A stretch of 64,000 nt of DNA from Phyllosticta citribraziliensis (GCF_038025025.1 NW_027117353.1:62001-126000); one strand, 5' to 3'; counted from the first letter of the stretch, positions 22,971 through 62,535 are shown. Translations and numbers: made by a program. The notes: generated by a model from the letters alone, not told the origin.

Positions 22971-25900
22971 ATGGCATTCTCTCTCTCGGCCCTCTCCGGC
23001 CTGGTCGTGCTCCTCTACCTGTCGACCTTTGTCATATTCGCCCTCGTCCGAGTCGTCACCGGCGTTTCGATACAACGACTTGGCTGGTACGGCTTGCGAC
23101 GCATCTCTTTCACACCAAAGGACGGCATTCGCCTGGATATTCGCGGCTTGAGGATATCGTTACACCGGCCAACTTTTGCGCAACCCACCTACGTGAGCGT
23201 GGTTGTCGAGGAGCTCAAGCTCACGATTGATCTCAAGGCGCTGGGAGAGGCAAAAGCCAAGGGCTCACCGGAACCAAGCTCAGAAAATGGGCTGGCCAAG
23301 GAACTGCAGGAAACAAGCCCGGCGCAAGGGTCAAAGACGAACGAGAAGCAGGGCCGCAAGAGCGAGGACACAACCAGGACATGGCAAAAGCTCACGGACA
23401 TCAAGGATCGCATAAAGAAACTGCACCGCCAGCTCGACTGGATTCGCATGTTCGACATTGTCGCAACCACCACATCCCTGGTCATCGAGGATGTCGGGTC
23501 CGTGCAGATTGCGCAGTTCACGGCGGCAGTCGATACGAGGCGCAAGATGGTCGATCGCAGCCGGCTGTTCCAGCATCGCAGAGCCAAGTCGAGCGACCAG
23601 AGTCCAGCCGAATGGATCTTCACCGTCCGCAACGTCCTGTTCAGTCCGGAGGGCCAAGAGTCGACCGAGATTCTGGATCACTTCACGTTGAACATTCATG
23701 GATTGCTGTACAAGGAGCTGGACGGCCTGCGCGATGCATCGATTGCGCTTAAGCTGGGGCGCCTTCACATACCCTTTGACGAAATCGAGGGCTGCCTAGA
23801 CCGTATCAAGGCCAAGCAAAAGGCACATCTTCGCAGTCATACCAAGTACTCGCTGAATGATCTCGTGGATGAGCTGGACAAGCCAGGCAGCCATGAGCGG
23901 GACATTGTGCAAACCGTTTCGGATTCCAAAGAGTTCATTAGCTCGACCCTCAGGGGTATTCAGGAAATTCAATTCGCCGTTAGCTTCTTTGGTCTCACAA
24001 AGCGAATCCGCTCAGGCTCCGAGTCTGAGCGCCCTGTCTACCTGAACATGTCAATGAAGGAAGTCGGCTTCGATCTCCTGCGCCTAGATCCTCGCAGCCC
24101 CGCGCACCTCATGTACTTTGGCCCTCAGGATGTCGCCCACCAAGCCTTGCTCGCCGCCATTTCTATCTCAGTGGGAATAGACCATGGTCAGGACAATCCA
24201 GAAAGGTTGCTCTACATACCAATGGCGACCACGACTCTGAAAACCACGCTCCCTGCGAAAACGATCCAAATCGACAGAGACAGAGACGTTGCCGAGCGCA
24301 ATACGAATATTCTCTTCGCCAATTTTGTGGTCACTTCTCCTTCTTTTGACCTTGATCCTAAACATTTACCTTTAATCCTTGCGCTCCTCCAAAGCCCAGA
24401 AGGCCGCAAACCTGGGGCATCCACCAGTATCCATACCAAGCGCCACATAATATCTCGCCTACTTCCCAAAGCGAATGTAAAGTTCTCCATTCACGAGCCA
24501 GTCGTGAGGGTAACATTACCGCCAATGGAGTCCGGAAAGAAGGACACCGACGAGTTCGACCTTCTAATATCCACCATGTCCTCGATATCCCTGGATGTGG
24601 AGGCCTCTCACTCTGGTGGTGGAGAATTACATTACGCCGTATCTTCTAATTTCCGCATCACTGGCCACGAGCTGTACTACCAAACTGCGTCCCGCGAAAA
24701 GCATAACCTCCTCGTTACGGACGCAGCCGAAGTAAAGCTGCAGCTCGAGGCTTTCCCCGAGGTTTCTGTCGTCCTGGCAGGCAATCTCGAGACCTTCAAC
24801 ATCTTCATGGTGCGGCCCGAAATCAGCGAAGGCGTGCGGCAGATTGTTGCTCAGCTGCGGACCATGGAATCCTCCACCACGCACAAGGCTTCCGACAAGA
24901 GCAAGCCAAAATTCCTAAGAACACTTCCAAGGTGGCTCACACACCTCCATTTCCACGGCTCGGACTTCAACGTCGAAGTCGCTGGTGTTGATCCGGATGT
25001 GTCAAAGCACTCGCGTGGCGTCGCGCTGCACTTGGACACCTGGACTGCCGAGTACAAGGCCGACAAGAGTGATGATTCCGACAAGAGATTGTCCAGGAGA
25101 CGGGCGACAAGTCGATCGGTGCCAACTGAATCTCAACTGAGAGCGGTATCTCCTTCTTCTCCTCCGTCCTCACCCGCACCGCGAAAGAGGCATCTGACCG
25201 AAAGCGATGGACGGCGACTGGCCATACACATACAGGGTCTTGAGGGTTTCACGATCGAATCATCGGACTCGCGAGAAGAAGAGTCTTTCCTGAGGCTGCC
25301 GAGATTCGAGGTTGCTTTTACAACTTCGACAGATATCCAGGGCCCTGTCTTCCACATCAACTCTTTCGCTCAGAGTCTTTTCGTCCACTACTCTCTGTAC
25401 CGACACTTTGCACTTGGCGTGGCAACCATGGTCCTTCGGAGAGCCTTTGTCAAACAGTATTCAGATCGCACCTATGTGCCCGCTCCGGCACCCAAACACC
25501 AAAGAAGTCTGACCGTCGAGGATGCCGAAAGGGAGGATAGGCTTTACGGGGATCCACGCATCCCATCCAAGGCCGAAATCGTCACTATCGACTTCCGGGT
25601 CGCCTTTGTCCAGGTCAAGGCTACGGTGCCGGATGATCCACCTCTTATGCTCCAGATCTACGGTTTCGACGCCGGTCGCCACAGATGGGCCCCGCCGTTT
25701 GCTCGCGCCAAGCTGCTGCGTCTCTATGCAGAGGCTCCCGGTCTCAAGAAGACTTGGGCTCGTATGGTCAGCGTCAAGAGTTTGAAAGTCGACCTGCGGT
25801 CGTCGAGAAGGAAATTTGGAAACCAAGTGTCAGAGGAAAAGTCAATCGACATTGGAACTGATGCCGTTCGCGTGGCTGTTCCCCATCAACTGGTTGTCCA

Positions 25901-28900
25901 CAAAGTCTTCGACAACATTACCAACACGGTCAAGACGGTCGAGCAGCTCCATCACCGGTTCAAGACTGGCTCGAATGAGTACATCCTCGAGAAGGGGCCT
26001 GAAGCACCCAAAAAGGTGCCAAGGATCTCAATCAGGAGCCAGGCCGTGCTCTTTGAAATCGAGGACAGTGGCTTCGAGTGGAAGCTTGGAACAATCTTCA
26101 GACTTGGCTTGCTCGAGCAGAGACAACGCATGGCCCGCGAGGATGCATTTGCTCTCAAGGTCAAAAAGCTCAAGGAAGGCGAACGCCGTCGTGGCAACAC
26201 AAGTAACCGTGCTAGGTCTGCACACATGCGTGGCCGAAGCCAGCAACGACCTGGAAGTGAATTCGAGCGACGGAGCAAAAGCTTGACGCGCGGCGATGGG
26301 AAGGGCAGCACCGAAGAGCGTGGGCGCAGACGAATGCGGTACGACGTCGAAGGTGCCTCCGAGATGAGCGACAGTACTCGAGTCCATATTGCTCAAGCTC
26401 GCGAGAAACTCGACAGGTTGCATGCTCAAAGCTGGAGAAATCGCATTGACAACGGTCTCAAGTCCACGAACAACGGCGTCAAGGATATACGCGCCATGTT
26501 CTGGGGCCTCGACGACATGCCCGACGGCGTCGAGCAGCAGGAATCAATCCTTGCTATTCCCCAACGGCCAGCGTTGATGGCTTTCTTGGTCAGCGACCTC
26601 CACTTCATTGTCGACAAGCCAAGTTTCCCCTTGTCGGAGTACCCAACTTTCTTGAACCGCATCGGCAAAGGAATGCCCGTTGACATGCAGTACTCATTAC
26701 TCATTCCTCTCAGTGTCCAAATCAGCATGGGTGAAGCACGAATGAACCTGCGCGACTATCCTCTGCCATTCATCCACATACCCGCCATGCGGACTGGGCA
26801 GTCGACTCGTCTTCCAAGTTTTTCCCTCAAAACGGACTTTGTCATTGCAGAGGAGTTTCGCGACCGCGAGTCCAGCAGACAAATCGAGGTTGAAGTCGTT
26901 CCTCCGGAGATGCTTGAAGATGGTCAAAAGTCTGGTGGCTTTATTGTCAACGTTCGCAAAACCATTGCTCCTGTCAAGACTTACTCCGATATGAGTGTCG
27001 ACGTCAACACTAGCTTCCCGACGAGGATTACGTGGGGCAGTAGTTACCAGCCGGCCATTCAGGACATGATGCAGGTCATAGAAGGTTTCACCAAGGCCCC
27101 CGTCGACCCGAGTGAAAAGGTGGGATTCTGGGACAAGATCCGACTGAGTTTCCACAGCAAAATCAGAATTGCATGGAAGGGAGACGGCGATGTGCACTTG
27201 ATCCTTAAAGGCTCTCGCGATCCCTACAAGGTTACTGGCGATGGCGCTGGCTTTGTCATGTGCTGGCGCAACGACGTCCGACTCAACGTGTGTCAAGACG
27301 ACGACCCGAAAAAGTTCATCACCGTCGACAGCGGTGTGTACGTACTCGCGATTCCCGATTTGAGTCACTATGCGAGGTCAGTCGATCAAGAGGAGGTGGA
27401 CAACGAAACTGTCATCAGCAGTTCCAACTTCAAGCACGGTGCATCCTTCCGCAAGACTGTCATGAAGCTTTCCGGCAACGTCAGATGGCTTGTTGGCCTT
27501 GTGTTTGAGAAGACTGGGAATAACGGCAAGAGATCTTTCGAATTTGCTCCCCACTACGACGTCATCCTCAGACATCCCGACTACGCCAAGTCTCGCGACG
27601 GCAAGGAGTACGACGCCTTCCGCGGATTCCGTAGCCACCACATCCATATGTCGGTCGCCATCGCTGCACCCCACGATAGGGATTGGTCTGTTGCAAACAC
27701 CAAGGCTTCATCCAACTACAACAGCCTTCACCTTACTCCTCGAGTCTTCGGTCACTTCTTTAGCTGGTGGTCACTGTTCTCCGGTGCCATGCAGCTACCT
27801 GTGCGCCAGGGACCTCTATGGCCTGGTGTGGACAAGTCTGGCAAGAAGTTTGGAAGACATCTCGGCACCATCAAATTTGGCCTCTTGCTGTCTCCTCTTT
27901 ACATGAGTCACATTTACAAGCACAAGGATCCAGACGACTATGGACAAGGTGTGGTATCGGCGACTGGTCTCAAGGTTCGCCTAGACAGCTTCATGCTTGA
28001 TCTTCACATGCGCAGAGAGGAGTTTCGCTCTTCGGCTCAAGGTGCGAACAAGTCGACTACGACGACTGGTATGCGCATCAACCAGGTGCAGTTGGACTTT
28101 ATGTCTGCCGATATCCGCGCCATCTCGGCGCGCATCACGGGTCCGGAGAGCAATGATCTAGAGGAAGAGACCGAAGACACCTTGAACTCGTTCCAGCAAG
28201 ACGCGACGCAGGTTGACTTGTCCAAGTTCACGATTCCGGACAACGATCTCTCGTGGGTAGACATGGATGATTTTGTGGAGCTGGACTGGATCCTCCCCTC
28301 AGAGAACAATCCGGAGACTAAAATTTTGCCATTGGCTTTTGCCCCTCGCTTCACGTACTTCCGCCAGACAGACCATCAAGACCACATCTCTGGAGATCCG
28401 CACAGGACCAGCATTTTCGGCAATGAACCAACTCACTACTGCGTCATGTCAAAGCAAAACGACCCAAGGCGTGTTCAATGCGAACTCATTGCAGACCGGC
28501 TGAAGAAGGTCCACGAGCAACTAGAATCAAACAATCGCTCCATTGGTGAACAACAACTCAGGATCCTGCGTTCGACCGAAGACGACGACGTTGAGCTCGA
28601 AGAACGCTTGCGGGTATACCAGCATCATCACGAAAACCTGCAGCGCAAGCGCGACATCCTCCAGTCCATGTACCACAGCTTGATCGTTCGGCTTGAGCGT
28701 GACGAGAACTCTGCCGTCGCGTCTAGTGACGCTGACGACGAGTACTACCAGGCGCCGGAGATGTATGACCAGACTGACAATAACGCTAAGAAGCTGGATG
28801 CGACGCCTCTGGCAGATTACATTAGCGACTTCAACAACCGCTTCGTCATCCACAACGCCCAAGTCAAGTGGAACAATGCGCTACGAAACATTATCCTCCG

Positions 28901-31900
28901 ATACATTCACCAGGTCAGCCAGCGTCGTGGTTTCGTTTACTACATGTCGCGTCGGGCTGTCAAGTTTATCCTGGACATCATCGATGAACAAAGCAAGTCC
29001 CGCAAGTCGACCGATGTACCTGTGACCAAGCCACGCTCTGCATCAACGCCAATGTCTCCCCAAGCAGATGATGACTTGGACGTCAATTCGAGGATTCAGC
29101 AGCTGCTCCAGGATGGCCGAAGATTTGTAGATGCCAACGACCCAGCCGAATCCGAAACGAACAAGCAGCCCTCTGCCGAGAATCCAAACGACGACATTGC
29201 TCAGGAATTTACGGCGCAGAACACGTACCACGTCCGCCTCATCGCACCGCAGATTCAGCTGCAGAGCGAGAAGAACACAAAGTCTGCGGTATTGGTGACG
29301 GCCAAGGGCATGCAGCTAAAGGTCATTCAAGTCATGGACAAAGACCGCGTCGAGGACGACGTCTCTGGTCTCGTGCAGCGGCGCTTTTCGGCTGCTATGG
29401 ACAGCCTGCAAATTTTCGTGACGAGCACCAAAACCTTCTCCACCGAATACCTGCACATGTACTCGGGCAATAGGTACGGAGCGAGCGTCGGCTCCAGTTG
29501 GCCTCCGTGGGTACCTTTTGAAGTCATGTTCGAATTTGACACGAATCCGTACGGCTTCTCCAGGGTGGTTCAGAGGACTTCGGCCAGCTTGAGATATGAC
29601 AAATACAACACTCTTCGTCTCAAGTACAACGACGACGTCAGTGGCGAGGAAAACAGCCACTCACACAGCCCTGAGAGTGCGGAGAGCAGAGTCGACCATC
29701 TCTGGGTCGAGTTCCCCCACGTCCGCGCCGTTTGCGACTCGATGCAGTACTACGCCATGTACATTATTGTGCTGGACCTCCTTCTCTACAGTGAACCACT
29801 CGAGAAGCAACGCAGCGAGAAGCTGGAGAAGATCATGCTGGCCTCTGATTTTAGCGACCTCAACGGTGCTCCGGAGCTTGTCGTGAGCCTGCAAGAACGT
29901 ATCCACCAGCTGGAAGAGATCAAGACACGATTCCAGGTTCACGAGCAGTACCTTGACCGTGAGGGCTGGAAGAACAGGATCGAGCTGGAGAGAACGCTTG
30001 CGGAGAACGAGGAGGAGTTGTTCTTCATGATGAAGGCCATTACCACGTCACAACGCAAGACAGATGACAGAGCCGCCGAGGCGACTCAGCCCATGGGATT
30101 GCTGCGCTATCTCATCACCGCAAGCGAGATTGTGTGGCATCTTGTCCGCGAAGGCGAGGAGAGCTTGGCCGAGTTTCAGCTGGGCAATGCAAGCTTCGAC
30201 CGCACAGACAACAGCGACGGCTCCAACCTCAACTGCATGGAGATTGAACGCATCCATGGCCTCAATCTGCTGCCCGATGCTGTCTATCCCGAGATGATTG
30301 CTCCATATCTCGATGAGAGTAGGAACTTTGTCGACGGCAGGGACGCAAAGATGCTGCGTGTGCACTGGTTCATGCTTGAAGCAATTGCAGGTATTCCTGT
30401 CATGGACCACTTTGAAGTCAACCTCTTCCCTCTCAAGGTTCAGCTCGAGCGCGAGATTGGCAAGAAGCTGTTTGAGTACATCTTCCCAGGTGTCGGCAGC
30501 AATGCATTCGAGAATGGCGGGTTCTCGCCGTTCATGGTTAAGCACATTCTTCCTCCACAAGAAGAGGGGATGGAGGTAGAGAACGGCGATGATCAAGTCA
30601 ACCTCGTTCCGGACTCTCCCCAGATCTCGAGAAACTCGTCACAGCGGGCAAGCATTGACGGATCTGGTCCCGGTTCCCTGGAGCTGCGCCTACAACCGAC
30701 ACTTGCGTTGCCTGATCAGAACAGGCCAAAGACTTCTTCGGGAATGTCTGCAAAGAAGGGCAACATCGGGGCCCATCTCGACTTGACGCAATTCAAGATG
30801 TTTGACGCATCGAGTCGCACTGGCACCGGGTTGTTCAGGAACCTCCATACCTCTTCGGGATCTGCAAAGGACAACTCGGATACCCTTACCATCGCGAGCG
30901 CCCGACCTTCGAGTCGCCGTTCCTCGGCTACAAAGCTACCTGGCGTGGCCGAGAACGAAAAGTCGGCCAAGCGCGGCTTCGGCATGCACAGATCACCAAG
31001 CTCGCAACGCAAGGAAAGGAGCCAGAGCGACGACCTCAATCAGATGATGACGCGCGCCAGCAACTACATGACATTCGCCTACATCAAGATTCCCAGCATG
31101 GTACTCTGTCTCTCATACAAGGGCAAAGGTAATCGCAATGTGGAAGATGTACACGACCTCGTCTTCCGCATGCCCACCATTGAGTACCGCAACAAGACTT
31201 GGAGCAACCTTGACCTGGCACTTGCACTTAAGAAAGACGTCATCCGCGCTCTCATCAGCCACGCAGGTACCATTCTAAACAACAAGTTCTCGCACCACCG
31301 CCCGAACAAGGGCAAGGGCGTGCAGCACTTGAAGCAGTTGGCCAATCCATCCATCATGCTCAACACGTCGTCCGAGGTTTCGTCGACGCAGGTGTCGGAC
31401 AGCTCGCGTGCTAGCCCCGAGGACGATACCGAAGCCGAGCCGCGAAGGAGTTTTGCCAGCGGACGGGACTCGGCCGTTAGTCGCGCGGACAGCTACTCGA
31501 GCAGCGCGCGGAGTGTGACTGGCACCACTTGGACTGGTGGCGGATTGAACGCCCACAACAGGTCTGAGGATCCTACTACTTTTGCCGACGAGCTGAGTGT
31601 GGTGGATTTCGACGTATGTTGGACCCTTCACTTCTAGGTCTTTCCAATGAGGAATAGATTGCTAATGCTGAACGTAGCGTGACACGGCAAGCATTCGCCA
31701 CGCCCCCAACACCTTGCACCGCGCCATCACGGCCATGAGCCATCGGTCAAGGGATAGGGATGACGATTCTGAAGAGAGGTAAGTTGCGCAATCGAACGAC
31801 CCGCAGTGGGGCCGCATGCTAACGTGGGTACGCAGTAACCGCATGAAGAGCAAGCTGCTTCTAGGCAAAAAGTTTGTCAAAAGCCTTGGACAACACAAAT

Positions 31901-31902: not shown

Positions 31903-33415
31903 TTGTGTCATCTTTGCGGCAAAACACCTGTCTCGGCCGACATCGGACAACTCACGCTCTCCTGAACACATCACATGCCTTTGCAGAAAAATGGTACAGC
32001 AAAGTATGACTGATTTCTAGTTACACGGACCCATTGCTCTCGTTTTCTCTGTTCGAAATGCAGCATCTCCACGGCGTTTTCTTGTCTGGCAGTGGCTCCA
32101 CTGGTCGGTATGCGTTCATTTCAAAAGATACGGAACGAGGCAACCTTCTTTCACTTTTTCTCTCAACTATAGACTTGCTTAACGGGGACCATGGCGGTGG
32201 CGTACGTCGACGGAGTCTGGACGCAAAGCTAGGCTGAACCGACCGGGCTGGTTGAAGCAACAGGAAAGCACAAGGGCGGAAAGGGAGGGGTCGGTGGTGT
32301 ATTCTTTTCCGTACTCTTTTTTGTCTCGCGCGGCAGGGTGGCGCGACACGGCGTCAATGTAGACACGGACGAACTGGCATTGGGTTCAATTGTTTACGGT
32401 AAACGGTCGGTCGGTCCTTTTGGTTCTTTGGACTTTGGGGCAGGAGGACAGCGTTCCCTTCTGACTTTGGAGCGGCGGAACAGGTGGGGATTCGACTTTG
32501 GTGTAGATATTTTTGTACGATCATGAGAGAGCTGTGTGGGGCTGAGCAGCGGCGTTCCTGGGAACAAACTGCTCGAGCACTTGGAAACGACAGTACAAAA
32601 TCACGACCTGATTCGATCCAACAACCGGGGCGGGGGAGCGCGATTGCTATATCTCGGTTCGATCTCTCTGAAACTGACCCCACCGTGGAGATCGCACCAC
32701 AGATGAAGGGAAACAGAGCAGCAAGGGGCTACAACCGCAGGAGAACCGGGTAAGTGTTCAAGGGGTGCTGCGAATCCAGGAGGCCTAACTTTGTCGAGCT
32801 AACCGCATGGGGCAACTTCTAGACAAGCGATGAGGCTAGTTCAACGTCGTCTCTGAGTACGTCGTTGCATGTGCGGCCTCTTTGCGCAATGGTGTCCCAA
32901 AGACTTTGCGGCCGTTGGAGAGAATGTTGGGACTGCAATGGGTGGTGTTGATGAGGCAAGTTTTCGTTGTGCCTGCCGCCAGCAATTTTGAAGATGCTGA
33001 AGTCTTCAGGTCTCTCGTGCGATTGATGTGTGCGTCTTGAATTCGTCGCTCCACCACCTCCAAAGGCTTGCTGGCAGATGATGCAACCATGAGGAACCCA
33101 CTCAACAAGGGAGATGTCACATCATGGCGGGCTTCTAATAATGGAAGGGATTAGTTTGTCGGTCGACAGACTTAGTCCTGCATCGTCTCTAGACCATTGA
33201 CGAACGATTCCTCTCCGCGTCCGCCGATACCATCACCGCCCTGGTGGGGAAATGACGAGATGGTCTGAAGCGGCGTGGGCCGGACCAGATCGCAAAGACG
33301 AGGCAAAATCTCAATGTGGATTAAAAACTCGATTCAATCCTATTCTAAGGGAGGCTTCCAAATCCCCGCTCAACCTCTGACTGCCGCAGCTGCTGACAGT
33401 GCTGTGTCCGTCATC

Positions 33416-36400
33416 ATGGTTGCCAAAACCGCCTTCGCCAGCCTTCTCTTGCTGGCCACGGCTGCAGGGTCGCCAGCCCCTAAAGCCGGTCACAAAACCT
33501 CCCTCAGGCTCCAGCAACCAGTTCCTTACGAAATCAACCATGAGGAGAGGCTTCCGATGAAGAGCTTCCTCGATTACCCTTGCTACTTTCTCCACATGGG
33601 AGATTTGAACGGGTTCACTATTCCTCTCATTCGGACTGCCCTCGAGGCTGGGCAGAAACACGAGGCCATCATCGAAGGATGGACCAGCCACAGCGGCGGG
33701 TCATGCCAGTTTGCACTGTCCCCCGATTTCCCTCCAAGGCTCGACTCCGAGTTCAAAGTCATCACGTCCATTGAGGGAAATTGTCCCGGCAAGGTCGACA
33801 ACAAGTTGGACCCTGTACCGTTCTACATCCCCGAAAACGCTGCCAATGGCAACTACACGTTGGCTTGGACGTGGTTTCCGCAGGTTCCGAGCACCGGCAG
33901 ACCAGAAATGTGGATGGAGTGTGCGCCCGTTGAAATCGTCGAGGGCAAACCAAAGAAGAAGAAGCCCAAAAAGGCGGGCAAGGGATGGCTGAAGAAGCTG
34001 CCGACCATGTTCATTGGAAACGTCAATGTTGGAAGCTTCGACGTCGACAAAGAATCCAAGGCGGACTACCAAAACGCCTTGAATGGCAAGTACGGACCCA
34101 AGGGCAGGTGGAACAGGATTGCTTGCATCACCAAGAACGACACGGAGCTTGCGTTCCCATATCCGGGCGATCAGAAAATCAACAACGTTGAATCGGGCAT
34201 CATCAACGAAGTGGAGAGGCAAGCCAAGAGAATGAAAAGGTACCCCGTCGGCGATGGCTGCTGGGTCAAGGACAAGCCTGTCAAGGGACTCGACAAGAGT
34301 TGGGGTTACGGCAAAAGGGATGTGGACGAGTCTTTGGACGAGTCCGACGACGAGGTAAGTTGGCCTCCCCTTTCGTCCGAGCTGCCTTTGCTGATCTCAT
34401 TGCACAGGACGAGGTCAACCTCTTCGAACGTCGGAGCGTGTCAGGTGGAACGACCACGCGGCTCTTTACGTCGTCTTACGACCTAGCTCCGGGTGAGACA
34501 TTCGGTCCTTCGCCGCCGCAGCAGACTGTCACTGTCTCCGCAGACCAATTCTCAAGATATCCGGTCCTGCCTACTACATTCGTTATTGAGCCCGGATCTT
34601 CAGTCCGTGGACAGGTGGACTACAGAACCGCGACCGTTGAATATGATGGGCCCAGCACATTCAGTTTCTATATGTCAATCAGCGAAAGTTTTCCCAGAAC
34701 ATTGGCTGTTGCGACGCCTCGAGCGGCGTTGAGTACCCCCGCTCCATCGGCAAGCTCTACTCCATCAGAAAGCTCTACTCCATCAGAAAGCTCTACTCCA
34801 TCAGCAAGCTCTACTCCATCAGCGAGCTCTACTCCATCAGCGAGCTCTACTCCATCGGAAAGCTCTACTCCATCGGCGAGCTCTACTCCATCGGCAAGCT
34901 CTACTCCATCGGCAAGCTCTACTCCATCGGCGAGCACCACTCCATCGGCGAGCACCACTCCATCGGCGAGCACCACTCCATCGGCGAGCACCACTCCATC
35001 GGCGAGCACCACTCCATCGGAATCCACCACCCCGTCTGGTGGAACGACCACGACGCAGCTCTCTACGAGATTTTACAACCCAACTCCGGGTAATGCATAT
35101 GTTCCTGCTTCGCCACAGACTGTCACTATCTCCTCGGACCAATACTCACGATTTCGTACCCTGCCCACTACATTCGTTCTTGTGTCCGGAACTCCAGTCC
35201 GTGGTGCAATGTTGGATCGTAAAACCCTGACCTTTGAATATGATGGGCCCACCACATTCGGCTTTTATGTGTCAGATGTAAATGCTGGAAACTATTACTC
35301 TGTGGGAAGCACATTGGCTATTGCGACGCCTCGAGCACTGTCCAGTACTCCCTCTTCATCTGCCACCACGACTGCGGAGTCCAATTCCAATTCGCTCACA
35401 CAACCGACAACCACGACTCCATCGGCAAGCACCACTGAATCGACGACCACCACCCCGTCAACGTCCCTGTCTACAAAGAAATACTATGCAAGTGGCACTG
35501 AGCGTTTACCTTCGCCGGACGTGCAGACTATCGTGGTCACCTCAGACCCACTGTTCCGTATTTCGCCAACTACACTCGTTATTAGCCCCGGGGGCCCAGG
35601 TCTTGGGGCACCATTAAGTCATACCGTGACTATTGCACACGATGAGTCCAGGACGTTCAGATTTTTTGCCTGGGATGATTCTTATGGCCCTCAAACACCC
35701 TTCCTTGCGACACCTCGAGCTGTCTCAACTACCCCTACTACATCGCCTTCCTCTGCGACGACGACGACGGATTCCATCTCGAACTCGGTGACCCAGCCAA
35801 CAATTACCACTTCCTCTTCAGTTTCCTCGTCAAGAGGCCTCTCCACAAGATTTTACTACCCAACAAGGGGTGGCCTTCTTACGCCGGGTGTCGAAACGGT
35901 CACAGTCTTTGAGGACCCGAGGTATCCTAGTTTGCCAACCTCGTTCGTCATTTCCCCTGATTATTCCTACTCGGGCGCAACGCAAGTGGTTCCGACCTTG
36001 ACTCTTGCGTATAATGGGGTCCAAACATACGGCCTCCTCATCTCAGACTCAAGGGGACCTGGCACAGCAACACGCGCGATTTTGACACCTTACACGTCAA
36101 GCACGTCAAGTACTCCAAGCACGTCAAGTACCCCAAGCTCGTCAAGTACCCCAAGCTCGTCAAGTACCCCAAGCTCGTCAAGTACCCCATCCTCGTCAAG
36201 TACCCCATCCTCGTCCTCTGCCACTACGACGACGGTCTCGAATTCGAACTCGGTGACACAACCGTCCATCATCATCAATCCTCCATCAACCGTCTCAGCT
36301 CCAACTCAAAGCGCGTCGTCTGGGACGAGTCCGAGCCAGCCCACCACTTCTCCGCCCACGACAACGCAGACGGCGTCCGCGACCTCAGGGAGTCCCACTC

Positions 36401-38958
36401 AGCCCTCGTCATCAACAACGGTCCTGATCACAAGATACTATTATGCCTCCCTTGGAGCCGACATGCAGACGAGAACAATCACAATAGATCGATCCTACAG
36501 CATCACGCCAAGCATATTTGTTGTCGCGCCCACTGACTCCACGTTGCCGGGTACTCCCCTGACAACAATTACGGCACAATACGACGGAATCACTACCCAA
36601 AGCGTCTTCCTGTATGGCACAACGTCTTTCGGTATCATTCAAAGGGCCCTCCCATCAGCCTACAGCTTCGTCCCAAGAGCGCCTCAAGCGGCCCTCACCT
36701 CTCAGGATTATACATTGCTCATAGAAACGCCTCGACCAACATCAAGCGCACCAAGTTCCACGCCTACTGGGACAGCCTTTACTACTTTTGTCACTTCGTC
36801 GACATTGGTCATTACCAGCGCCTCTACGGACACGGATGCTGTGTACAACAGCTACTCAACTTCGATGACCACTTACTTGACTTCGACGCCTGTAAGCGGT
36901 TCTCAGACGAGTTCAAGCCAGCCTTCCTCTCCTTCAGCAACGACATCGGCAGGGCAGACGACTTCCGCGCCAAGTACTTCCTCTCCTAGCGTGACAACTA
37001 GGGGTTACTTCTTCCCCCCTGGATCTGGAGTGGCAGCCGCCATAAACACGATCACGGTCACCTATTCACGCAATTCGCCGCCAACGAAGACCTACGTCCT
37101 CACTCCTCTTACAGAGACGCCGGCCAGTTCTCCGTCTTCACTCTCTTACGCCAGATATACGATAACTGCAGAGTACAATGGTCCTACGTCCCAAACCATT
37201 GTGCTGGCTCCCGCGGGCGTCACGGCATTTGCCCAGATATACACGTATGTTGTCGAGGTTCCTTATTCCACAGCAAGTGGGTCCTCGGGAACAGACTTTA
37301 TCACATCTTCGCTTACAAGCCGGGCAACGACCAGTTCGACCGTGTCCCCGTCACTGTCCTCGAGCAGCACGAGCCCCTCGTCTGCCCCTCCAACGTCAAG
37401 TCCTAGCGCAAGTTCTAGTCCTTCGAGCAGCACGACGCCCTCATCTAGTACTCCAACGACAAGTTCTGGGACAAGCTCTAGCCCTTCGAGCAGCACGACC
37501 CCCTCGTCTGTCCCTCCCACGACAAGTTCCGGAGCAAGTTCCAGTTCCTCGAGTTCAGCGTCGGCAAGCTCGACGCCCACACCAAGTTCCTCGTCGACGA
37601 GCCTTCTCACGCGGTTCTTCAATCAGGGCTTCTTTGGCGCCTTGGCGGATGCGCACTCTGCCACGGCTCTTTCAAGATACGGGCTCACACCGAGCTCTTT
37701 CTTCCTTGTTCCTACATCAGTGCCAGTCAGGTCAACCGGTATCAGCGCAATCATCACGGCTGCTTATGACGGCATTGGCACCCGGAGCCTTCTGCTTCTC
37801 GACGAGAACCCGGCGGCTTCGACATACACGGTCCTCGTTGAAACACCATCGCAAACACCAGCGAGTACGACGGCTTCGGATGCAGTAAGTTCAAGCACTC
37901 CTAGCTCATCGCTAACACCGTCGAGCCCGAGCTCTGTGAGCTCCAGCTCGACGTCGTCTGTGGTGGTCTCGAGCAGTCCGTCCTCGGGTCTCATTTCAAC
38001 CTCCTTGAGCTCAATCCCGATATCGGTGGTTACTTCTGGCAGTCCCATCACGCTGTCGCCTCCTACTACGACTACTCCTTCAAGCAGCCCCAGTCCTTCG
38101 TCCAGCAGTCCAAGCTCGGTCTCTCCAGACACGAGTTCTCGCAGATGTACCTTCTGTTCGCCTGGATCCAGCTCGACCTCGGACAATACGAACTTGCGTA
38201 CGCATACTCACTTGCATACCGGGACGTATGCACATACGATAACGCACTCCCACTTCTCTCCAAGCTCGTCCTCAACGCCGTCGCCGGTGCCATCGACGCA
38301 GACGCCACCATCTCCTGACAGCAGCTCGCCGTCGTCATCGACCCCGGCCCCTCCCACGACGACAATCCTTTCGACCTTGTCCACCACCACGCGTATACGC
38401 ACCCGGACGCGGACCCGCACGCCGTCGAGCTCCAGCCCAACACCGACGCCCAGCTCCACCACGCCAACGCCGACGCCCTCGCCCTCGCCCTCGCCCTCGC
38501 CCGCGCGCCGCTGCACGCCCGAAAACAACGGCCAGCTCGTCTGCAAAGCAAACGACAAGACCGTATACGCGCTCTGCGACAACGGGCGCGTGCGCTGGAA
38601 GCCGGTCGCTCCAGGCACGCAGTGCGTCAACAACGCCATCGTGGCCGCGAGGGACGACAACGCCGAGGGCAACAAGGTCATCGGATCGGCCTCGACGCCC
38701 ACGCCCACACCCACGCCCTTTGCGAGCGGCCCGTCAACCAATGGGAATACCGTCGTGACGGAGCCGCAGTCCAGCGCGGCGCCCGTGCCGACGACGGGGG
38801 CGCAGAGCTCGTCCTGTGCGTCTGACGGCAAGCTGTATTGTAACGGCGAGGCGCTGTTTGGGCTCTGCAATTGGGGCACCGTTACGTGGCAGAGTGTTGC
38901 GCCGGGCACCAAGTGCGCTGATGGTGCCATCACGTATGGAGATAGCCAGGCGTATTAG
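33416..38958 (+). CDS. Large secreted modular protein (~1829 aa): AA11 LPMO-like domain, 7 repeated beta-rich modules with S/T linkers, and 2 X278/CBM19-like modules; intron 34355-34407
   Basis: Signal peptide MVAKTAFASLLLLATAAG; AA11-like motifs PVPY, DYPC, HSGGSCQFALS, FKVITSIEGNCP, GNYTLAWTWF and EMWMECAP. The intron GTAAGT...GCTGAT...CAG joins ORF 33275-34486 to ORF 34300-38958 in frame. The C-terminal modules follow the pattern C..G...C.....C..G...W..VAPGT.C. Confidence 0.8.
34744..35031 (+). repeat. Coding minisatellite, ~16 x 18 bp, encoding (PS[A/E]S[S/T]T)n
   Basis: Units of ccatc(a/g)g(c/a)(a/g)agc(tct/acc)act are seen directly. Confidence 0.92.
36106..36213 (+). repeat. Coding minisatellite, ~6 x 18 bp, encoding (SSTPSS)n
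   Basis: Units of tcaagtacccca(agc/tcc)tcg. Confidence 0.85.
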
Positions 38959-49500: not shown

Positions 49501-51669
49501 CTGGGTGCATTGTTTTTGGATGTCGTGCCTGGCAAGCCAGCAGCCCGCCAGCTCTCAGGCACGCCAGGAGGGAGGCAGTGCAGGTGTTCCCGCCTGTCAA
49601 GAAGCGAGGGGGGCGCCCGTTCCGCGCTTGACGCTTCTCGAACGCCCGTCGATGGGTCGGGACGGGCGCGGGCGTTGATCGTCATAGCGGGGGCATGCTG
49701 TTGGGGATGGCAGGGAGAAAGGGGGCCGACCAAAAACAGACGATGCGCGCGGATCCCCCGACCGACGCAGACCACCGCTTGATGGTTGGCGGGAGCACAG
49801 CATGAGCCGCGATGCGGAGGCGGATGGAGAAGAAGAAGATGGGGCCAGGCATTTATTACTTTTGTTGCGGGTTGAAGAGTTGAGGCTCTGCCGGGTACCG
49901 TGGCGCACACTGGGGTCTTGGGGAAATGTTTGATCAAAGGTGAACTGTCAGGGCGGAGTGGTTGGTGGTTGGTTGACTGGACTTTTCTGTTCTGTTTCCT
50001 GTCTCGAGCGCAGGAGCAGCAAATGTGGATCCCCCGGTCAGTCCACATTTTGTTTCACCCCTAACGTTAACCTTGATCTGGTGGTTATTGCTGGCGCTCT
50101 GCTCCTTCTTGAGGGAAGACTTGCGAAGACTTGCAAAGCGCTTGGGTTGGCTTGCCCAGACGGCACAGCAGCAGAGGGTCAGCACCTCGTTTCCCGCATT
50201 GGTTTCGTGGCCGACGCCACTTCGGGAGCGTTTCTTGTGGCGTAGGCCTAACCGCCGTCCAAGCTCCACCCAGTCCGACCACACGTTCCGTACAGAAACA
50301 CGAACCCAAAGAGACTTTCTCCGTCGCTCCGTCTCAGCCTCAAGGCAGCCGAGGCAAATGTCATTGACGACATGCAGCGGTCTACTCGGATACTTAGCAG
50401 AGGATTGCAGCGCCTAACAGAACCAATGCACGCCGTTACTGGTGCTCTTGCGCCCGCAGCCGCGTCGTTGCCATTGACGGTGGCCGGTTGCAAACGACGG
50501 CCATGCTGTGGTGGTGTAGCGGTTGGACAGCAACCTGGCACTGGCGGTTTCAAATTTGACTTTTCCAAGATTTCGCAAACGCCCCGAGCAGCCAGACCGA
50601 CGAGACAAGGCAAAAAGGCTCGCATGGGAAATTCGGATCCATGGCAGGCTTTACGAGCTGCAGCTGGTGATTGGCTTGGGGTTTGAAATGACGATGAATA
50701 AACAGCAGTGTCCTTGTGGGCATGGCGGTGTAAGGCAACAACATGCACGGCGGCTGGACCTTTTGTCAATCATGACAGCGGAGGGGCTTCCTAGAGCAAC
50801 GGGTGGATTTGGATCGGCCCGCTGCTGGAGCGTCGTCTGGAGACTTGGACAGCACGGCGACTGGGAAGAGACGGCGTGGCTGGGTGTGGATGCGAGAAGG
50901 AGTGGGTAAGGTACATGTAGGTGTGGAACAAAAATAGCACACGGGGTCTCTCCACTCGGCCCCGGTCAAGCTAAGCTGCTGTACAGTCCAGCTGGAGTTC
51001 GTGTTGAAGCTTGGCGTGCTTGGAGTGCTTGGAGTGCTAGCAACCATGCACGTCGTTCAATGGTGTCGCTGCAGACGAGCCGTAGGTAGTTATAGTCGCC
51101 ATGGTTTTCAGAGGTGGCAGAGGGACAATTGTCAGGCCGTCAGAGGCCGTATTGGGTCGCTGGGGAGCCCTGGCGAGCAGGCCAACGGGCGTCTGAGATT
51201 GAGCAAATGACATCGTTTGGTTTCATGAGTGGTGGTGGTGGTGACTTGTGCGCCGGGGGCCCCTCCTTCGATCGACAGAGTGCAACTGCGACTGCAAACC
51301 AAACCTTCAGCCTACTGGACTGGCACCTGGCACCTTGCCTTTCTGCCATCCCTGCCTCTGCCTCTGCCTCTGCCTGCATGTGTGTGCCCTGTCTGCTCTC
51401 CTTTTCCTGCCCTACAAAGCCCGTGGCCAGCCCCTCCCACCCGCCTTTCCTCTCGCCCGTCTACACTCAGTCCCGTCTGCCAACCTCCTCCTTCCTCCAC
51501 ACAGCTTGACCGTCAACTAATTCCGTTGCTTCTTCTCTGGGAAGTCTCTCACTCTTTTGAGCTCCCTTCTCTTTACAATCAACCATCTCCTTCGACTCCT
51601 TCGCTCGCTGGCTCTCCATCTCGACGACTCGTCAACCTCGTATCTCCCCTTCTTCCATCTTCACCCACA

Positions 51670-53025
51670 ATGAAGTTTGGCACCACTCTCCTCGGTGCCG
51701 CCTTAGCGGCTGCTCCGGCCCTTGCCACCCAGACTGGAAACAACAAGCTCCCCGCCGTCACCGTCAAGGGCAATGCTTTCTTTGCTGGCGATGTGCGCTT
51801 CTACGTCCGTGGAATCGATTACCAGCCCGGTGGTTCTTCCAACCTCGACGACCCGCTCGCCAACCCAGACAATTGCAAGCGTGATGTCAAGTATTTCAAG
51901 GAATTGGGCGTCAACGTGGTTCGCATCTACACTGTCGACAACTCCAAGACTCACGATGAGTGCATGAACGAGCTGGCCGACGCTGGAATTTACCTGGCCC
52001 TCGACGTCAACACCCCCAAATACTCCATCAACCGCGCCGAGCCCAAGGCGTCTTACAACGATGTTTACCTCCAGAACGTTTTTGCGACCATTGACGCATT
52101 TGCCAATTACACCAACACCTTGCTCTTCTTCTCCGGCAATGAGGTCATCAACGACGAGCAGAGCACTGGGTCTGCTCCCTACGTCAAGGCTGTCACCCGT
52201 GACATGAAGCAGTACATTGGTTCCATGGGCTACCGTCCGATTCCCTGCGGTTACTCCGCTGCCGACGTCGAGTCCAACCGCTACGAGACTGCGACCTACA
52301 TGAACTGTGGCACCGACGACGAGCGATCCGACTTCTTCGCCTTCAACGACTATTCTTGGTGCAACCCCTCTTCGTTTACCCAGTCTGGTTGGGATGCCAA
52401 GGTCAAGCAATACGGCGAATACTCTATTCCCCTTTTCCTCTCCGAGTACGGTTGCAACAAGGGTACGCGTACTTTCGAAGAGGTGAGGTCGCTGTACGGC
52501 ACCGATATGATCTCGGTCTACTCCGGCGGTCTTGTGTACGAGTGGTCCGAAGAGGGCAACAAGTACGGTCTTGTCGAAATTGAGGGCGACCAGGTCAACC
52601 CCAAGCCCGACTACCAGGCCTTGAAGGATGCTCTGGCCAGGACCCCGCCACCCGAGGGAGACGGCGGCTATAAGCCCAACGGCCCTCCTTCGCAGTGCCC
52701 CAAGAAGTCCAACACCTGGGATGTTGACACGGACGCTCTGCCCGCCATTCCGGAACCGGCCAAGAAGTACATGTCCGAGGGTGCTGGTACGCCCAAGGGT
52801 CTCGATGGCCCCGGCTCTCAGAACGCTGGCACCGAGTCGAAGGGCACCGCTACCGCTGGCTCCGGCAAGGTTACCGCGACAGCTTCTGGCAAGGGCGCTG
52901 GTGCGACTGGTGGCAAGAAGACCGGCGCCGCTGCTGCTGTCCCCATCCCCAGCTTGGAGACTACTCCTTTCATCTTCAGTCTGGTCGTCCTCGTCTCGAC
53001 CTTTTTGGGCGCCGCCTTGCACTAA
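51670..53025 (+). CDS. GH72 beta-1,3-glucanosyltransferase (Gel1/Gas5-like, no X8 domain), GPI-anchored, intronless
   Basis: Signal peptide MKFGTTLLGAALAAAPALA; RFYVRGIDYQPGG, FFSGNEVIN (acid/base Glu), FNDYSWC, LFLSEYGC (nucleophile Glu) and YSGGLVYE; hydrophobic GPI signal at the C-terminus. Confidence 0.95.
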   Translation: MKFGTTLLGAALAAAPALATQTGNNKLPAVTVKGNAFFAGDVRFYVRGIDYQPGGSSNLDDPLANPDNCKRDVKYFKELGVNVVRIYTVDNSKTHDECMNELADAGIYLALDVNTPKYSINRAEPKASYNDVYLQNVFATIDAFANYTNTLLFFSGNEVINDEQSTGSAPYVKAVTRDMKQYIGSMGYRPIPCGYSAADVESNRYETATYMNCGTDDERSDFFAFNDYSWCNPSSFTQSGWDAKVKQYGEYSIPLFLSEYGCNKGTRTFEEVRSLYGTDMISVYSGGLVYEWSEEGNKYGLVEIEGDQVNPKPDYQALKDALARTPPPEGDGGYKPNGPPSQCPKKSNTWDVDTDALPAIPEPAKKYMSEGAGTPKGLDGPGSQNAGTESKGTATAGSGKVTATASGKGAGATGGKKTGAAAAVPIPSLETTPFIFSLVVLVSTFLGAALH

Positions 53026-55897: not shown

Positions 55898-58800
55898 TCA
55901 AGCCTCGACCGCCACAACGACCGGCAGCCCATCCTCAACGTCCATATCCATCATTATCTCACCATCGCCAACCTTCCCTCGTCCGCCCGTGGCTTCCCAT
56001 AGCTCACTCAGCTTCGCCCTTGCCTCCTCCAACGGCGTCGTCTCTTCAGCAACAACCAACTCCAACGTCGCCACGACAAGCTTCGCTATTTCATCTACGA
56101 CACAGCCGTCGAACATGGCCTCGTCGTACTCCAGGTCCAACGCCAGCTGCCCGCCACACGGCGACTCGGTGAACTCAAACATGAGCGGGTACTTCGCGCC
56201 GCGCGCGTGGGCGTGCAGGAGGACCGTCTGCGTCTGCGTTGCGCCGTCTGCGGCCAGATCAGCCTGGATGCCAGAGTCTTCGGATTGCGAGGAGGGCAGC
56301 GCGAAGTGCGGGACGCGTGTGCTCGTTTCGTGCGCCGTGTGGTATGTCACCATGCTGTCGAAGAGCGGGGGGAAGGTGTGCGTGGAGACAGAGGTAGAGG
56401 GAGAGGCAGAGACGGCGCGCGCAACGTCAGCCAGCGGCACATAGTGTGCCAGCGACGCCTGGCTCGATGCCGAAATGGCAGCGAGGAGCGCTGCAACGCT
56501 CGATTTGTCGCTCTCCCCCTTCTCATTCTCAATTCTACCACCTGCAACGGAAGAAAAGGGGATCTTGATTGCGACTCGATCCAGCAGCAACCCGACAATG
56601 TCGCCCGTACCCTCCTCGGCACGATTCGCGTACGGTGCGCCAAGCACGATATCCTCGCCTGCAGGCAGCTTCGTCATCGTTGCCAGCGTCAGCCCGACCG
56701 CAGCCAGCGCGATGCTGTGCGGCGGGACGCGCGAGCGGGTGGCGCGGCGCTTGAGAGCCAAGTGCAGACGCGGCGGGATGGGAACGTGGAGGTAGGACCC
56801 GCGATGCGAGGGCTGCCTTTGCGTGAAAGAGGTGAGCAAGTTGGGTGTCGCAGTGGCAAGGTGCTGCCTCCAGAAAGAGATGGTATTTGCAGGTGCAGGC
56901 AGGTGAGTGGAAAGCCACTTTGTCCAAGTTGCGAAGCGGTCTACTGGTGCTCCTTGAGCGGAAGACGAAAGAGAAGGAGAAGCATAGGATTTGGTGAGTT
57001 GATCCAGCAGCACCGCGAGCGAGGTCGCGTCGCCAACGATGTGGGACATGGTGATGCTGACGACGGTTGAGGTGTCGTTCTCGATGAACAACTTGGCGCG
57101 GATTGGCTGGTCGACAGCGAGGTCGAACGGTGTGTTGATCTCGGCTTGGATCAGAGCGTCGACGTCTTCGCTTGAGGTACAAGTGAGGACTTGCGGTTCC
57201 TCGATTGCGTCAGACAGTACGCGCGCCGGCCTGCCATCCACGATGAAGTAGCGAGAACGCAGAACTGGATGCTTCGACATGACATCCGCAAAAGCTTGTG
57301 CGAAGCGTGCCTGGTCAAAGATGCCGTGGACGCGAAAGACGAACGGCATGTTGAATGCGCCACTGTCCGGTGCCGTCATGTAGGTCTCGAAAAACTCGGC
57401 CTCAAGGGACGAGAGCGGCATGACCGGTTTTGTCTCCACCAGCGGCGCCTTGAGGAACGGAACCACAGACGCATCGGATGTCTCGTGAGCGTTCAAAGCA
57501 TGGTCGTCGAGGGCAGCGGCCAAGTCACGCAGGACGAGATGGCGGATGACAGTCTTGAGCGAGATGCTGCGGCCCAGCGCCTGCGAGAGCTGCTGCGCAA
57601 CTTTGATCTGGAGGAGCGAGTGTCCCCCAACGTCGAAGAAGCTCGAAAGGGCGCCAATCTCAAGGCCGCGGTGTTCGCTGCCGCTCGTCGCCAGAGTCTC
57701 CTGCCATACCTTTGCGACAAGCATCTCCGTGTCCGTCTCCAGCGGCGTCGAGTCCGCCGATCCCACATCAACCTCCAACGCCTCGAGCGCCTTGCGGTTC
57801 ACCTTGTGGTTCTGGTTCAGGGGCAGCTGGTCCTTGAGCACGAAGCGGTTCGGCTGGCAGTAGTACGGCAGACTTGCCTGAACAGCGGCCCTGAGCGCGC
57901 GTACGTCGACATCGATGGGCGTGACGAAGGCAATCAGGCTGTTGGATGACAACACAACGGCCACAGACTCGATCGCGGGATACGCCTTGCGTATCATGGC
58001 TTCCACGTCCAGAATGTCCACCCTGGAGCCGCGCACTTTGACCTGGTTGTCCGTCCGCCCAATCACCTGGAGCTGCATGTCCTCTGTCCACCGACCAATG
58101 TCGCCCGTCCGGTACATGGTCATGGCCAAGTCCGGGTGGAATTGGTCCGGCAAAAACACCTGTTGCGTCTTCGCCGGAAGCTTCAAATAACCGGGAGTAA
58201 CTTGGACCCCGGAGAGCAGGATTTCTCCCGTGCAGCCGACCGGCACTGGCTGGTTGTCTTCGTCCAGCACGTAGCTGGCCATGCGTGGCAGCGGGCGCCC
58301 TGCGTTGATCGGCTCGCCCGCTCTGCAGTACGAGTAGTTGACCGACAGCGTCGCCTCTGCCGGTCCATAGGCGTTGATCAGATGGCGGTCTCTGCCCCAT
58401 TTTTCCACAATCGTTTGCGGCGCCCCTTCGCCGACAAGCGTGATCTGAGGCCTCTAATCAGCTTTCCGTCACGCGAGAACTGGAGAACGCTCCTACTTAC
58501 AACTCGGAGATGGCCGTATGCGTTGTGGTCTAGCGTCCCAAGCATCGACGGCGTGATGAAGGCAGCGTCGGCGATGTGCAAGTGGCCGAGAGGGTCGTTC
58601 TCGTCCTTGAGCACGAAGACGCCGCCGTACAGCAGCGTTGAGAAGATCTCCATAACGCAAATGTCGAAGCCGTACGCGACGACCTGCGCGTTGCGCTGTC
58701 CGGGGACAGTGTGCGCCCTCGCAATGGGGTTTGCCAGGCACGAAAGAATACCCGAGTTCTGGAGTTGGACGCCTGTGCCATGTTAGGGCGTGCTTACGCG

Positions 58801-61800: not shown

Positions 61801-62535
61801 TGACGAGGCAGCCTCCGTTGCAGAGGGTGCTGAATAAGACGCCAGCACAACCTGCATAAGACGACCGATCAATAACAGGTTCAGGGGTAGGGTGATACCC
61901 TTGGTGGACTTACCGTCAAAGGCGATGGAGAATAACATCAAGACCCGGCTGCGTGGAGTGACTTTGACGTTGAAGGAGGATTCTTGACCATTGCTCCGAG
62001 CATAGTTGGCCATGGAACGATGCGCCACCATGACACCCTTTGGCTTTCCTGTCGAGCCAGAGGTGAAGATGATGTACGCCAAGTCATCCGGCGAAGGCGC
62101 ATCCTCAACAGAGCCGTCGTGGACCTGATCGAAAACCATGTCTTCGTTCGCAAAGCGGATGATCTCGTATCCAGCCAGCGGCGCGTCCAACTCTTCGGTG
62201 CAGACGACAGTCCTGGCACCGACGATACTGAGCGTGGTCTCGATCCGTTCGGGGCCCCAGGAGCTCAGGTCGACGGGTACGTAGCAGGCTCCCAGCTTCA
62301 GTATTGCAAGGACTGCCACCACCATTGCGGGCGATCTTGCTGCCAGCAGGGGGATGCGGTCGCCTTTTCGAAGGCCGTGGGCTTTCAGCTTTTGGCAGAA
62401 GTTGCTTGATGCGATGTCGATTTCGCGATACGTGTACTGGCGAAGAGACGACGGTCCTTTTGTCCAGTCGTCTAGGGCGGGACGCGAGGCATGCTCTGCG
62501 GCGCATTGTGCAAAGAGGTCGACGATCGAGCCCAT
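55898..62535 (-). CDS. Bimodular NRPS A-T-C-A-T-C (~2153 aa), GliP/SirP-like diketopiperazine synthetase; introns 61852-61913, 58773-58830, 58445-58500
   Basis: A1: YIIFTSGSTGKPKG, NAYGPTE, YKSGD, SNGKID. T1: LGGHSL. C1: HHSLTDG. A2: FTSGSTGIPKG, NAYGPAE, YRTGD. T2: VGGHSL. Terminal C: SHIVGDATS. The three canonical introns restore a single frame. Confidence 0.9.

Follow-up and report, generated by a model that had tools for sequence, protein, structure and literature searches.

The window analysed here, a stretch of 64,000 nucleotides (nt) of Phyllosticta citribraziliensis DNA (GCF_038025025.1 NW_027117353.1:62001-126000), carries on its plus strand a gene (33416 to 38958; 1,829 codons) whose product begins with a domain, hereafter the head, of the AA11 family of lytic polysaccharide monooxygenases (LPMOs). 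The copper site of this head is altered, and we consider it very probable that LPMO activity has been lost. The fuller reading, to which we give an even chance, is that the protein is a Phyllosticta-restricted AA11 pseudoenzyme maintained by selection, which would act as a non-catalytic binding protein of the cell wall or extracellular matrix. A preliminary description of the window had suggested a non-catalytic or neofunctionalised AA11 paralogue, and this suggestion is supported by the AA11 match, a predicted start other than His and old changes shared among relatives.

The head belongs to the AA11 family in both sequence and fold, as originally proposed. A phmmer search against PDB returned three matches at E<=10, all of them AA11 (9exj, 3e-26; 4mah, 1.1e-22; 7p3u, 1.4e-13), and the six cysteines of the three-disulfide pattern are retained (residues 56, 97, 123, 169, 237 and 282). 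For an AlphaFold2 (AF2) model of the head, built from a 102-row alignment (mean predicted local distance difference test score, pLDDT, 78.9), Foldseek ranked five AA11 chains first, and VIA yielded Z values of 22.6-23.4 for five AA11 chains vs at most 12.1 for other LPMO families (AA9/AA14). The model superposes on AA11 chains with a root-mean-square deviation of 2.3-2.6 over 182-187 residues. The Atlas clusters matching the head were LPMO-like only. Pfam, which holds no usable AA11 model, gave no AA11 match, its sole match being DUF7492 (E 0.018, under the cut-off).

In LPMOs, copper is held by a brace formed by a second His together with His1, which contributes both its amine and its ring (PMC12186267, PMC5094447), and one of these three nitrogen donors is left in the window protein. 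The Ser described in place of His1 is in register both in the alignment and in the structure superposition, in which Ser29, residue 11 of the model, is the first aligned residue and pairs with His1 of the AA11 chains. The second His is retained (His92 within HSGGSCQ, codon 33689), and the EMYMNCA motif indeed reads EMWMECA, with Trp166 (codon 33911) as the axial residue. All the positions and residues reported initially, including the ATG at 33416, the ATAAG end of the leader, H92 and W166, agreed with the sequence.

An exhaustive phmmer search detected 827 proteins at E<=0.001. Residue counts were taken from the best 150 of these minus P0002 and P0015 (the latter a piece identical to the query), i.e. 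from 148 other AA11-like matches, and three Phyllosticta rows were compared, namely the window protein, P0006 (P. citricarpa) and P0002 (P. capitalensis). Among the 148 matches, the His1 column contains His in 128 and other residues in 2, the remaining 18 showing a gap (in most cases from a truncated gene call), the second His is present in 145 and the second-sphere Glu in 144, while the axial column contains Tyr in 141, Phe in 5, His in 1 and a gap in 1, and Trp in none. The second His, the Glu and the six Cys are kept in all three Phyllosticta rows, which also have in common Trp at the axial site and Thr before the second His. Trp alone need not abolish activity, the CWR-1 authors having suggested that the axial site may accept any aromatic residue (PMC9550227). 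The decisive loss would be that of the N-terminal His amine, to which the very probable inactivity of the head is mainly ascribed. Three unrelated AA11-like matches among the 148 (P0062, P0086 and P0158) are also missing at least one of the two brace His, indicating sporadic, repeated loss of the brace within the family.

The ATG at 33416 opens the gene and is followed by a hydrophobic leader ending in ATAAG, after which the chain continues SPAPKAGHKTSLRLQQPVPY; P0006 and P0002 share the equivalent start Met, and in both the chain likewise goes on with SPxP. Signal cleavage was scored with a home-made matrix (not SignalP) trained on 219 canonical AA11 presequences (median 18.4, 5th percentile 5.9). 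The site AAG/SPAP reached 19.1, near the training median, vs -3.8 for cleavage before His26 (KAG/HKTS) and -34.2 for cleavage before the P. capitalensis His, both under the 5th percentile. His26 (33491-33493), which the preliminary description did not discuss, lies three residues ahead of the His1 position and is not conserved. Because the matrix favours AAG/SP and rejects the sites before His, an N-terminal His is predicted in none of the three lineages, as had been expected for the window protein. With Ser19 as the predicted mature start, Ser29 is preceded by ten residues, and the N-terminal extensions of the three lineages measure 10, 10 and 16 residues. Loss of His1 across orthologues therefore holds for the predicted N-terminal His, but not for the residue itself, since P. 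capitalensis keeps a His 16 residues inside the mature chain.

With regard to the features of a catalytic LPMO, the window head has the second His, and both an N-terminal His (the predicted start being Ser19) and an axial Tyr or Phe are missing. An active LPMO could still arise if processing exposed a His at position 1; the second His, the Glu and an aromatic residue remain, and the P. capitalensis His is in register. We regard this as extremely improbable, given that the in-register residue is Ser in the window and Ala in P. citricarpa, that cleavage before His26 or the P. capitalensis His is scored as poorly as indicated above, and that no dibasic site precedes the latter.

Another alternative is a rebuilt, non-canonical metal site composed of His92, Glu164 and either His26 or the internal P. 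capitalensis His, which would bind copper for sequestration or for the slow formation of peroxide. Gly-His-Lys at an N-terminus is a known Cu(II) motif, and dipeptidyl trimming of SP, AP and KA would expose it in the window protein. His92 and Glu164 are present in all three rows, single-His variants of CWR-1 held about one copper and reduced oxygen (PMC9550227), and the LPMO-like folds of X325/Bim1 serve copper uptake and handling (PMC7924993). However, the additional His is not shared (His26 occurs in the window only, His21 in P0006 and His34 in P0002), and His92 is part of an HxGGSCQ motif, so that it is perhaps kept for structure. Moreover, the CWR-1 variant retained its N-terminal amine and X325 its full brace, unlike the brace-less window head with its single nitrogen donor. 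A rebuilt site is thus improbable. Some residual metal binding by the head may occur, and metal handling is the least supported of the roles proposed in the preliminary description, because no substitute ligand is conserved.

Among the proteins searched, close relatives of the head were found only within Phyllosticta. A word-index search retrieved 2 matches out of 714 candidates, both from this genus, whose clusters comprise P. citricarpa, P. paracitricarpa, P. citriasiana and P. capitalensis proteins (mostly partial models), and in the phmmer search the E value jumped from 1e-84 (P. capitalensis) to 1e-25. A metagenome scan found no relative of the head among 419 pattern matches. No longer homologues (549-2000 amino acids, aa) occurred among 1,789 word-index candidates, which is weak evidence. 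In a tree based on 151 of 154 rows (three gappy rows were dropped) and 196 columns, the three Phyllosticta rows formed one clade (Shimodaira-Hasegawa-like support 1.0) on the longest branch (1.50); its sister AA11 clade is unsettled (support 0.47).

The Phyllosticta heads share two inserted segments (Table 1). Runs of at least four Lys/Arg residues, as in the poly-Lys loop, were seen in just 9 of 267 other AA11-like matches. The median length at the site of the 34-aa insert is 5 aa in 125 other AA11-like proteins, and its YGPxGRWNR motif is confined to Phyllosticta-group proteins among the sequences fetched. The released head would have an isoelectric point (pI) of 8.7-9.1, vs a median of 5.1 for canonical domains, 8 of 125 of which exceed 8. 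A contig of run X5 matches positions 34092-34135 alone, i.e. the insert motif; its loose ends, inspected by eye, are in frame and P. capitalensis-like, which hints at a fourth orthologue that is more distant than the others.

The head evolves rapidly. Its identity in two species pairs is 62.5% and 55.6%. As a control, the domain of the canonical paralogue L003 was compared across these two pairs and proved to be 95.1% and 92.2% identical, so that the corrected distance of the head is 8-10 times that of L003. The substitutions are nevertheless unevenly placed, with 37 of 47 columns conserved in canonical AA11s being identical in the three rows, vs 54 of 145 other columns (Fisher p 6.9e-7), and the newly gained segments (poly-Lys loop, insert and KR/D) are the best conserved parts. 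In a neutral null at the observed identity, simulated without indels, the frame stayed stop-free in 1-5 of 1,000 runs (it must remain open for the downstream stalk anyway) and all six Cys survived in 8-63 of 1,000. This protein-level comparison of three lineages indicates that the domain is kept by selection and is not decaying. Of the purifying selection looked for on the substitutions, maintenance of the domain was thus borne out, but slow change was not. The changes are also not recent decay, since the Trp, the Ala to Thr replacement and the N-terminal extension are common to the three Phyllosticta lineages.

Relaxed decay, in which the domain would be a passenger slowly lost from a mucin-like gene, could account for the low identity relative to L003 and for the differing residues at the His1 position, and the stalk is labile in run X3 and in orthologue tails. 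Survival of six out of six Cys at the frequencies given above, conservation that follows the structural core and the retention of newly gained segments make it very improbable. The source genome (G000) contains four other AA11-like genes, in all of which His1 and the second His are present; the axial residue is Tyr in three and Asn in one (L015). Under the best reading, it is these paralogues with His1 that retain the enzymatic function. L015 (G000:C8, minus strand, around 346,000-346,600) has two introns and reads EFNMNC, with Asn at the axial Tyr position.

Downstream of the head, the Kex2-type KR/D site opens an acidic spacer that is bounded at its far end by another dibasic pair (R321-R322, in exon 2), which two of the three rows possess. 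Only 3 of 130 canonical matches have a dibasic site within 30 aa past the last Cys. From these features, a Kex2 cut between head and stalk is slightly favoured. This raises the alternative that Kex2 frees the head as a basic apoplastic protein of about 280 aa acting on the plant or on competing microbes, the stalk being a separate product; the head would bind pectin, membranes or a host protein, and the acidic spacer would neutralise it in transit. The KR/D site with its spacer in all three rows, the high pI and the 8-10 times faster evolution are consistent with such a role, fast evolution being expected of proteins in biotic conflict. The protein is, however, present in an endophyte and in pathogens alike, and its locus is gene-dense, 53-55% GC and lies between housekeeping genes. 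A free, outward-acting head is therefore possible but unlikely.

The 313 codons of the preliminary description have correct coordinates, but do not form a whole gene; they constitute exon 1 of a spliced gene for a 1,829-aa secreted protein. Its parts follow in the order signal peptide, AA11-fold head, Kex2-type site with acidic spacer, repeat-bearing stalk and two X278-like modules. The gene is expressed and spliced. Of two candidate acceptors for the intron, the AG at 34407 alone yields the 1,829-aa frame, and RNA-derived contig 1 of run X1 skips precisely these 53 nt. The RNA-derived contig spans 33008-34352 with 0 letters differing from the window, and since it is identical to exon 1, the exon 1 residues are not assembly errors; the run possibly comes from the same strain as the genome. 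The contig-bearing runs are not recorded as RNA, and contig depth is unfit for ranking expression. In run X2 most of exon 1 is uncovered and later parts are covered, which is neutral as evidence. Public gene models of the locus are mostly partial, and the long protein has therefore been missed so far.

The stalk is rich in Ser (23%), Thr (19%) and Pro (11%) and contains seven copies of a beta-rich domain. Every held-out copy outscored its 500 shuffles (13.4-68.8 bits vs at most 12.1). The domain matched no Pfam family (two copies scanned), its best PDB profile E value was 0.62 and its best Atlas score 0.77, and its AF2 model was poor (pLDDT 46). A search of G000 gave 4 matches, all within the same gene, and none elsewhere, and no relative was found among 306 pattern matches of a metagenome scan. 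The C-terminal modules were scored with a hidden Markov model of 32 C-terminal modules of canonical AA11 matches. The protein has no hydrophobic tail of the glycosylphosphatidylinositol (GPI) type (the final 20 residues have a mean hydropathy of -0.18). A tandem hexapeptide array (ASSTPS/ASTTPS) lies at 34730-35020; its length may vary, because run X1 has other letters and a contig break there.

Table 1. Features of the AA11-like gene and its product (positions counted from the first letter of the window; a slash marks a predicted cut)
Feature	Position	Strand	Remarks
Signal peptide, M1-G18	33416..33469	+	best site of cleavage matrix AAG/SPAP, 19.1
N-terminal extension, S19-T28 (10 residues)	33470..33499	+	present in three lineages; pLDDT about 53
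AA11-fold domain, S29-C282	33500..34261	+	phmmer, Foldseek, VIA, column counts
Ser29 at His1 position	33500..33502	+	Ala in P. citricarpa P0006, internal His in P. capitalensis P0002
Thr90 and His92 (second brace His)	33683..33691	+	residue 90 Ala in 139/148 listed matches, Thr in 3/3 Phyllosticta rows
E164-M-W166-M-E168	33905..33919	+	second-sphere Glu164 kept; axial Tyr to Trp; Asn to Glu (Phe in P0002)
Poly-Lys loop KPKKKKPKKAGKGWLKK	33947..33997	+	17/20 columns (block 181-200) identical in three rows
34-aa insert ending YGPxGRWNR	34022..34123	+	equal length in three rows
Kex2-type KR/D (K300-R301) and start of acidic spacer	34313..34354	+	KRD in 3/3 rows
Intron, 53 nt, GT-AG	34355..34407	+	GT donor 34355, AG acceptor 34407
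Exon 2	34408..38958	+	Ser/Thr/Pro-rich stalk, repeats, C-terminal modules; stop 38956-38958
Seven copies of ~90-aa beta-rich domain	34447..37851	+	alignment of copies
Repeat copies 1-4	34447-34737, 35056-35337, 35467-35730, 35836-36096	+	
Repeat copies 5-7	36415-36738, 36988-37272, 37600-37851	+	
X278/CBM19-like Cys module 1	38524..38631	+	41.8 bits; Pfam CBM_19 E 0.023, under cut-off
X278/CBM19-like Cys module 2	38815..38925	+	58.6 bits; Pfam CBM_19 E 0.032, under cut-off

For the pseudoenzyme reading, we propose the following course of events. An ancestral AA11 gene made up of three parts (domain, linker and X278) would have been duplicated, and one copy would have gained the N-terminal extension, removing the free His1 amine required by the copper brace. 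This copy may also have exchanged the axial Tyr for Trp and had its surface remodelled (poly-Lys loop, 34-aa insert, pI about 9). Its product would be secreted as a large precursor, from which the head, given the conserved Kex2-type site and acidic spacer, is probably severed during secretion. The head would bind non-catalytically, probably to an anionic glycan or protein partner, while the O-glycosylated stalk would project the head or build matrix and the two X278 modules would tether the protein to wall chitin; the likely site of action is the cell wall or an adhesive extracellular matrix. Stalk glycosylation and chitin tethering we infer by homology, and the head ligand and adhesive role are weakly indicated.

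Fungal adhesins and mucin-like wall proteins (Flo/Als/Epa) possess a signal peptide, a folded N-terminal head and a Ser/Thr repeat stalk, all of which have counterparts in the window protein. Unlike these proteins, it has no GPI-type tail, a putative X278 anchor and a head of the AA11 fold. Phyllosticta spores bear a preformed adhesive sheath (PMC11671520), which is a plausible setting with no link to the gene. A more specific version, in which a metal-free polycationic module forms part of a Kex2 polyprotein that includes a chitin-tethered mucin with a new repeat and contributes to the preformed sheath, is a long shot. If true, this would be the first family of natural AA11 pseudoenzymes to be assigned a defined role, and it would make spore adhesion in Phyllosticta tractable at the molecular level.

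Comparison with the AA11 LPMOs AfAA11B (9exj, 9hdg), AoAA11 (4mah, 4mai) and AfAA11A (7p3u) revealed the same fold, six Cys, second His and second-sphere Glu, as well as a common domain-linker-X278 plan. The window head differs from them in having no N-terminal His, an axial Trp, Thr before the second His and a basic surface with two inserts, and the protein as a whole in its 1,500-aa stalk, seven repeats and two X278 modules.

LsAA9B, which Frandsen (2019) reportedly described as an AA9 member without the histidine brace, is said to have a conserved Arg at position 1, to be processed normally and to be widespread in wood-rot fungi; its PDB entry, 6rs6, was met in our structure comparisons. 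Both are naturally brace-less LPMO folds kept in fungal genomes. The window head differs from this AA9 protein in its AA11 fold, extended N-terminus, variable His1 position and a range found to cover one genus. Brace loss thus has a precedent among AA9 proteins. In PxLPMO1, which dampens chitin-triggered immunity, the brace is kept (PMC8035642), unlike in the window head.

That an AA11 fold can act without catalysis follows from Neurospora crassa CWR-1, whose His20Ala, His78Ala and Tyr to Ala variants were inactive on chitin and still triggered allorecognition, i.e. the fusion checkpoint (PMC9550227). The window protein resembles CWR-1 in its AA11 fold, three-part plan, proposed catalysis-independent function and X278 modules, the latter having been proposed as a wall tether (PMC9550227). 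It differs in that CWR-1 is an active, moonlighting LPMO linked to cwr-2 (DUF3433), whereas the window gene is brace-less and no DUF3433 occurs on its contig. The window protein might accordingly be a CWR-1-like determinant of self/non-self recognition in which catalysis has been dropped altogether. Apart from family, plan and the independence of the checkpoint from catalysis, its fast divergence would fit, as would two run X5 contigs over 33649-34019 with 13 and 48 differing letters per 371, which could be alleles. Run X5 may, however, be a species mixture, the 7 DUF3433 (PF11915) matches in G000 lie on C6, C9, C11 and C17 and none on the gene's contig C16, and P. capitalensis cluster members are nearly identical in the domain, unlike haplogroups. 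We consider this role quite improbable.

Several observations weigh against the binding-protein reading itself. Nine of the 219 canonical presequences are at least 28 residues long. In P. capitalensis, a His still occupies the His1 position and both the second His and the Glu remain, so metal chemistry may persist there, and the single-His CWR-1 variants still bound copper (PMC9550227). Chitin binding by the head is doubtful, because the chitotetraose-contacting Asn17 and Asn137 of AfAA11B align to Arg45 and Arg162. A dibasic site is no proof of cleavage, KR being found in an internal loop of 58 of 137 canonical matches. Finally, the seven-repeat stalk has no counterpart in what is known of the P. 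capitalensis tail (hhalign probability 0.6), and the X278 modules are shown for the window species alone, because the orthologue models are partial.

The literature searched (supplements and most subscription papers lay outside it) contained no brace-less AA11, no selected AA11 devoid of a copper site and no mention of this gene. The available parts of the Phyllosticta genome paper count AA11 genes only (PMC12506662), and those of PMC8668981 and PMC12537917 contain nothing on brace loss. LPMO folds are increasingly met outside biomass decay, and the Phyllosticta clade would be a natural experiment on such a fold without copper, complementing the engineered dead CWR-1 variants. Counts of carbohydrate-active enzymes can include non-enzymes. 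Should the protein act in the sheath of the spores or where the fungus meets the plant, it would offer a genus-specific point of access to the citrus and grape pathogens, as well as to their endophytic relatives.

An upstream in-frame ATG at 33314 was rejected as the start, as its context is weaker and the named orthologue models begin at the equivalent of 33416. It would add 34 in-frame codons (33314-33415) beginning with MWIK, and in the P. capitalensis Logan models P0013/P0014 an in-frame extension of 35 codons shows these four residues as well; the stretch could be conserved promoter DNA or belong to a longer isoform. Further upstream, the X1 contig skips two more introns (32749-32821 and 32954-33007; GT-AG and GC-AG), and run X3 skips a different GT-AG stretch of 90 nt in the leader region. 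This leader contains 23 ATGs within the 1,288 spliced bases examined. Transcription of the Hobbit gene may run on into it, or it may be an extended 5' leader or belong to a non-coding RNA of its own.

The flanking genes encode Hobbit/FMP27 and a DUF202 protein. The Hobbit/FMP27 open reading frame (22971-31637) seems, by eye, to extend past its listed stop via two short introns (31610-31860). Elsewhere, the window contains a GH72 glucanosyltransferase gene (51229-53025) and a gene for a multi-module non-ribosomal peptide synthetase (55898-61909, minus strand).

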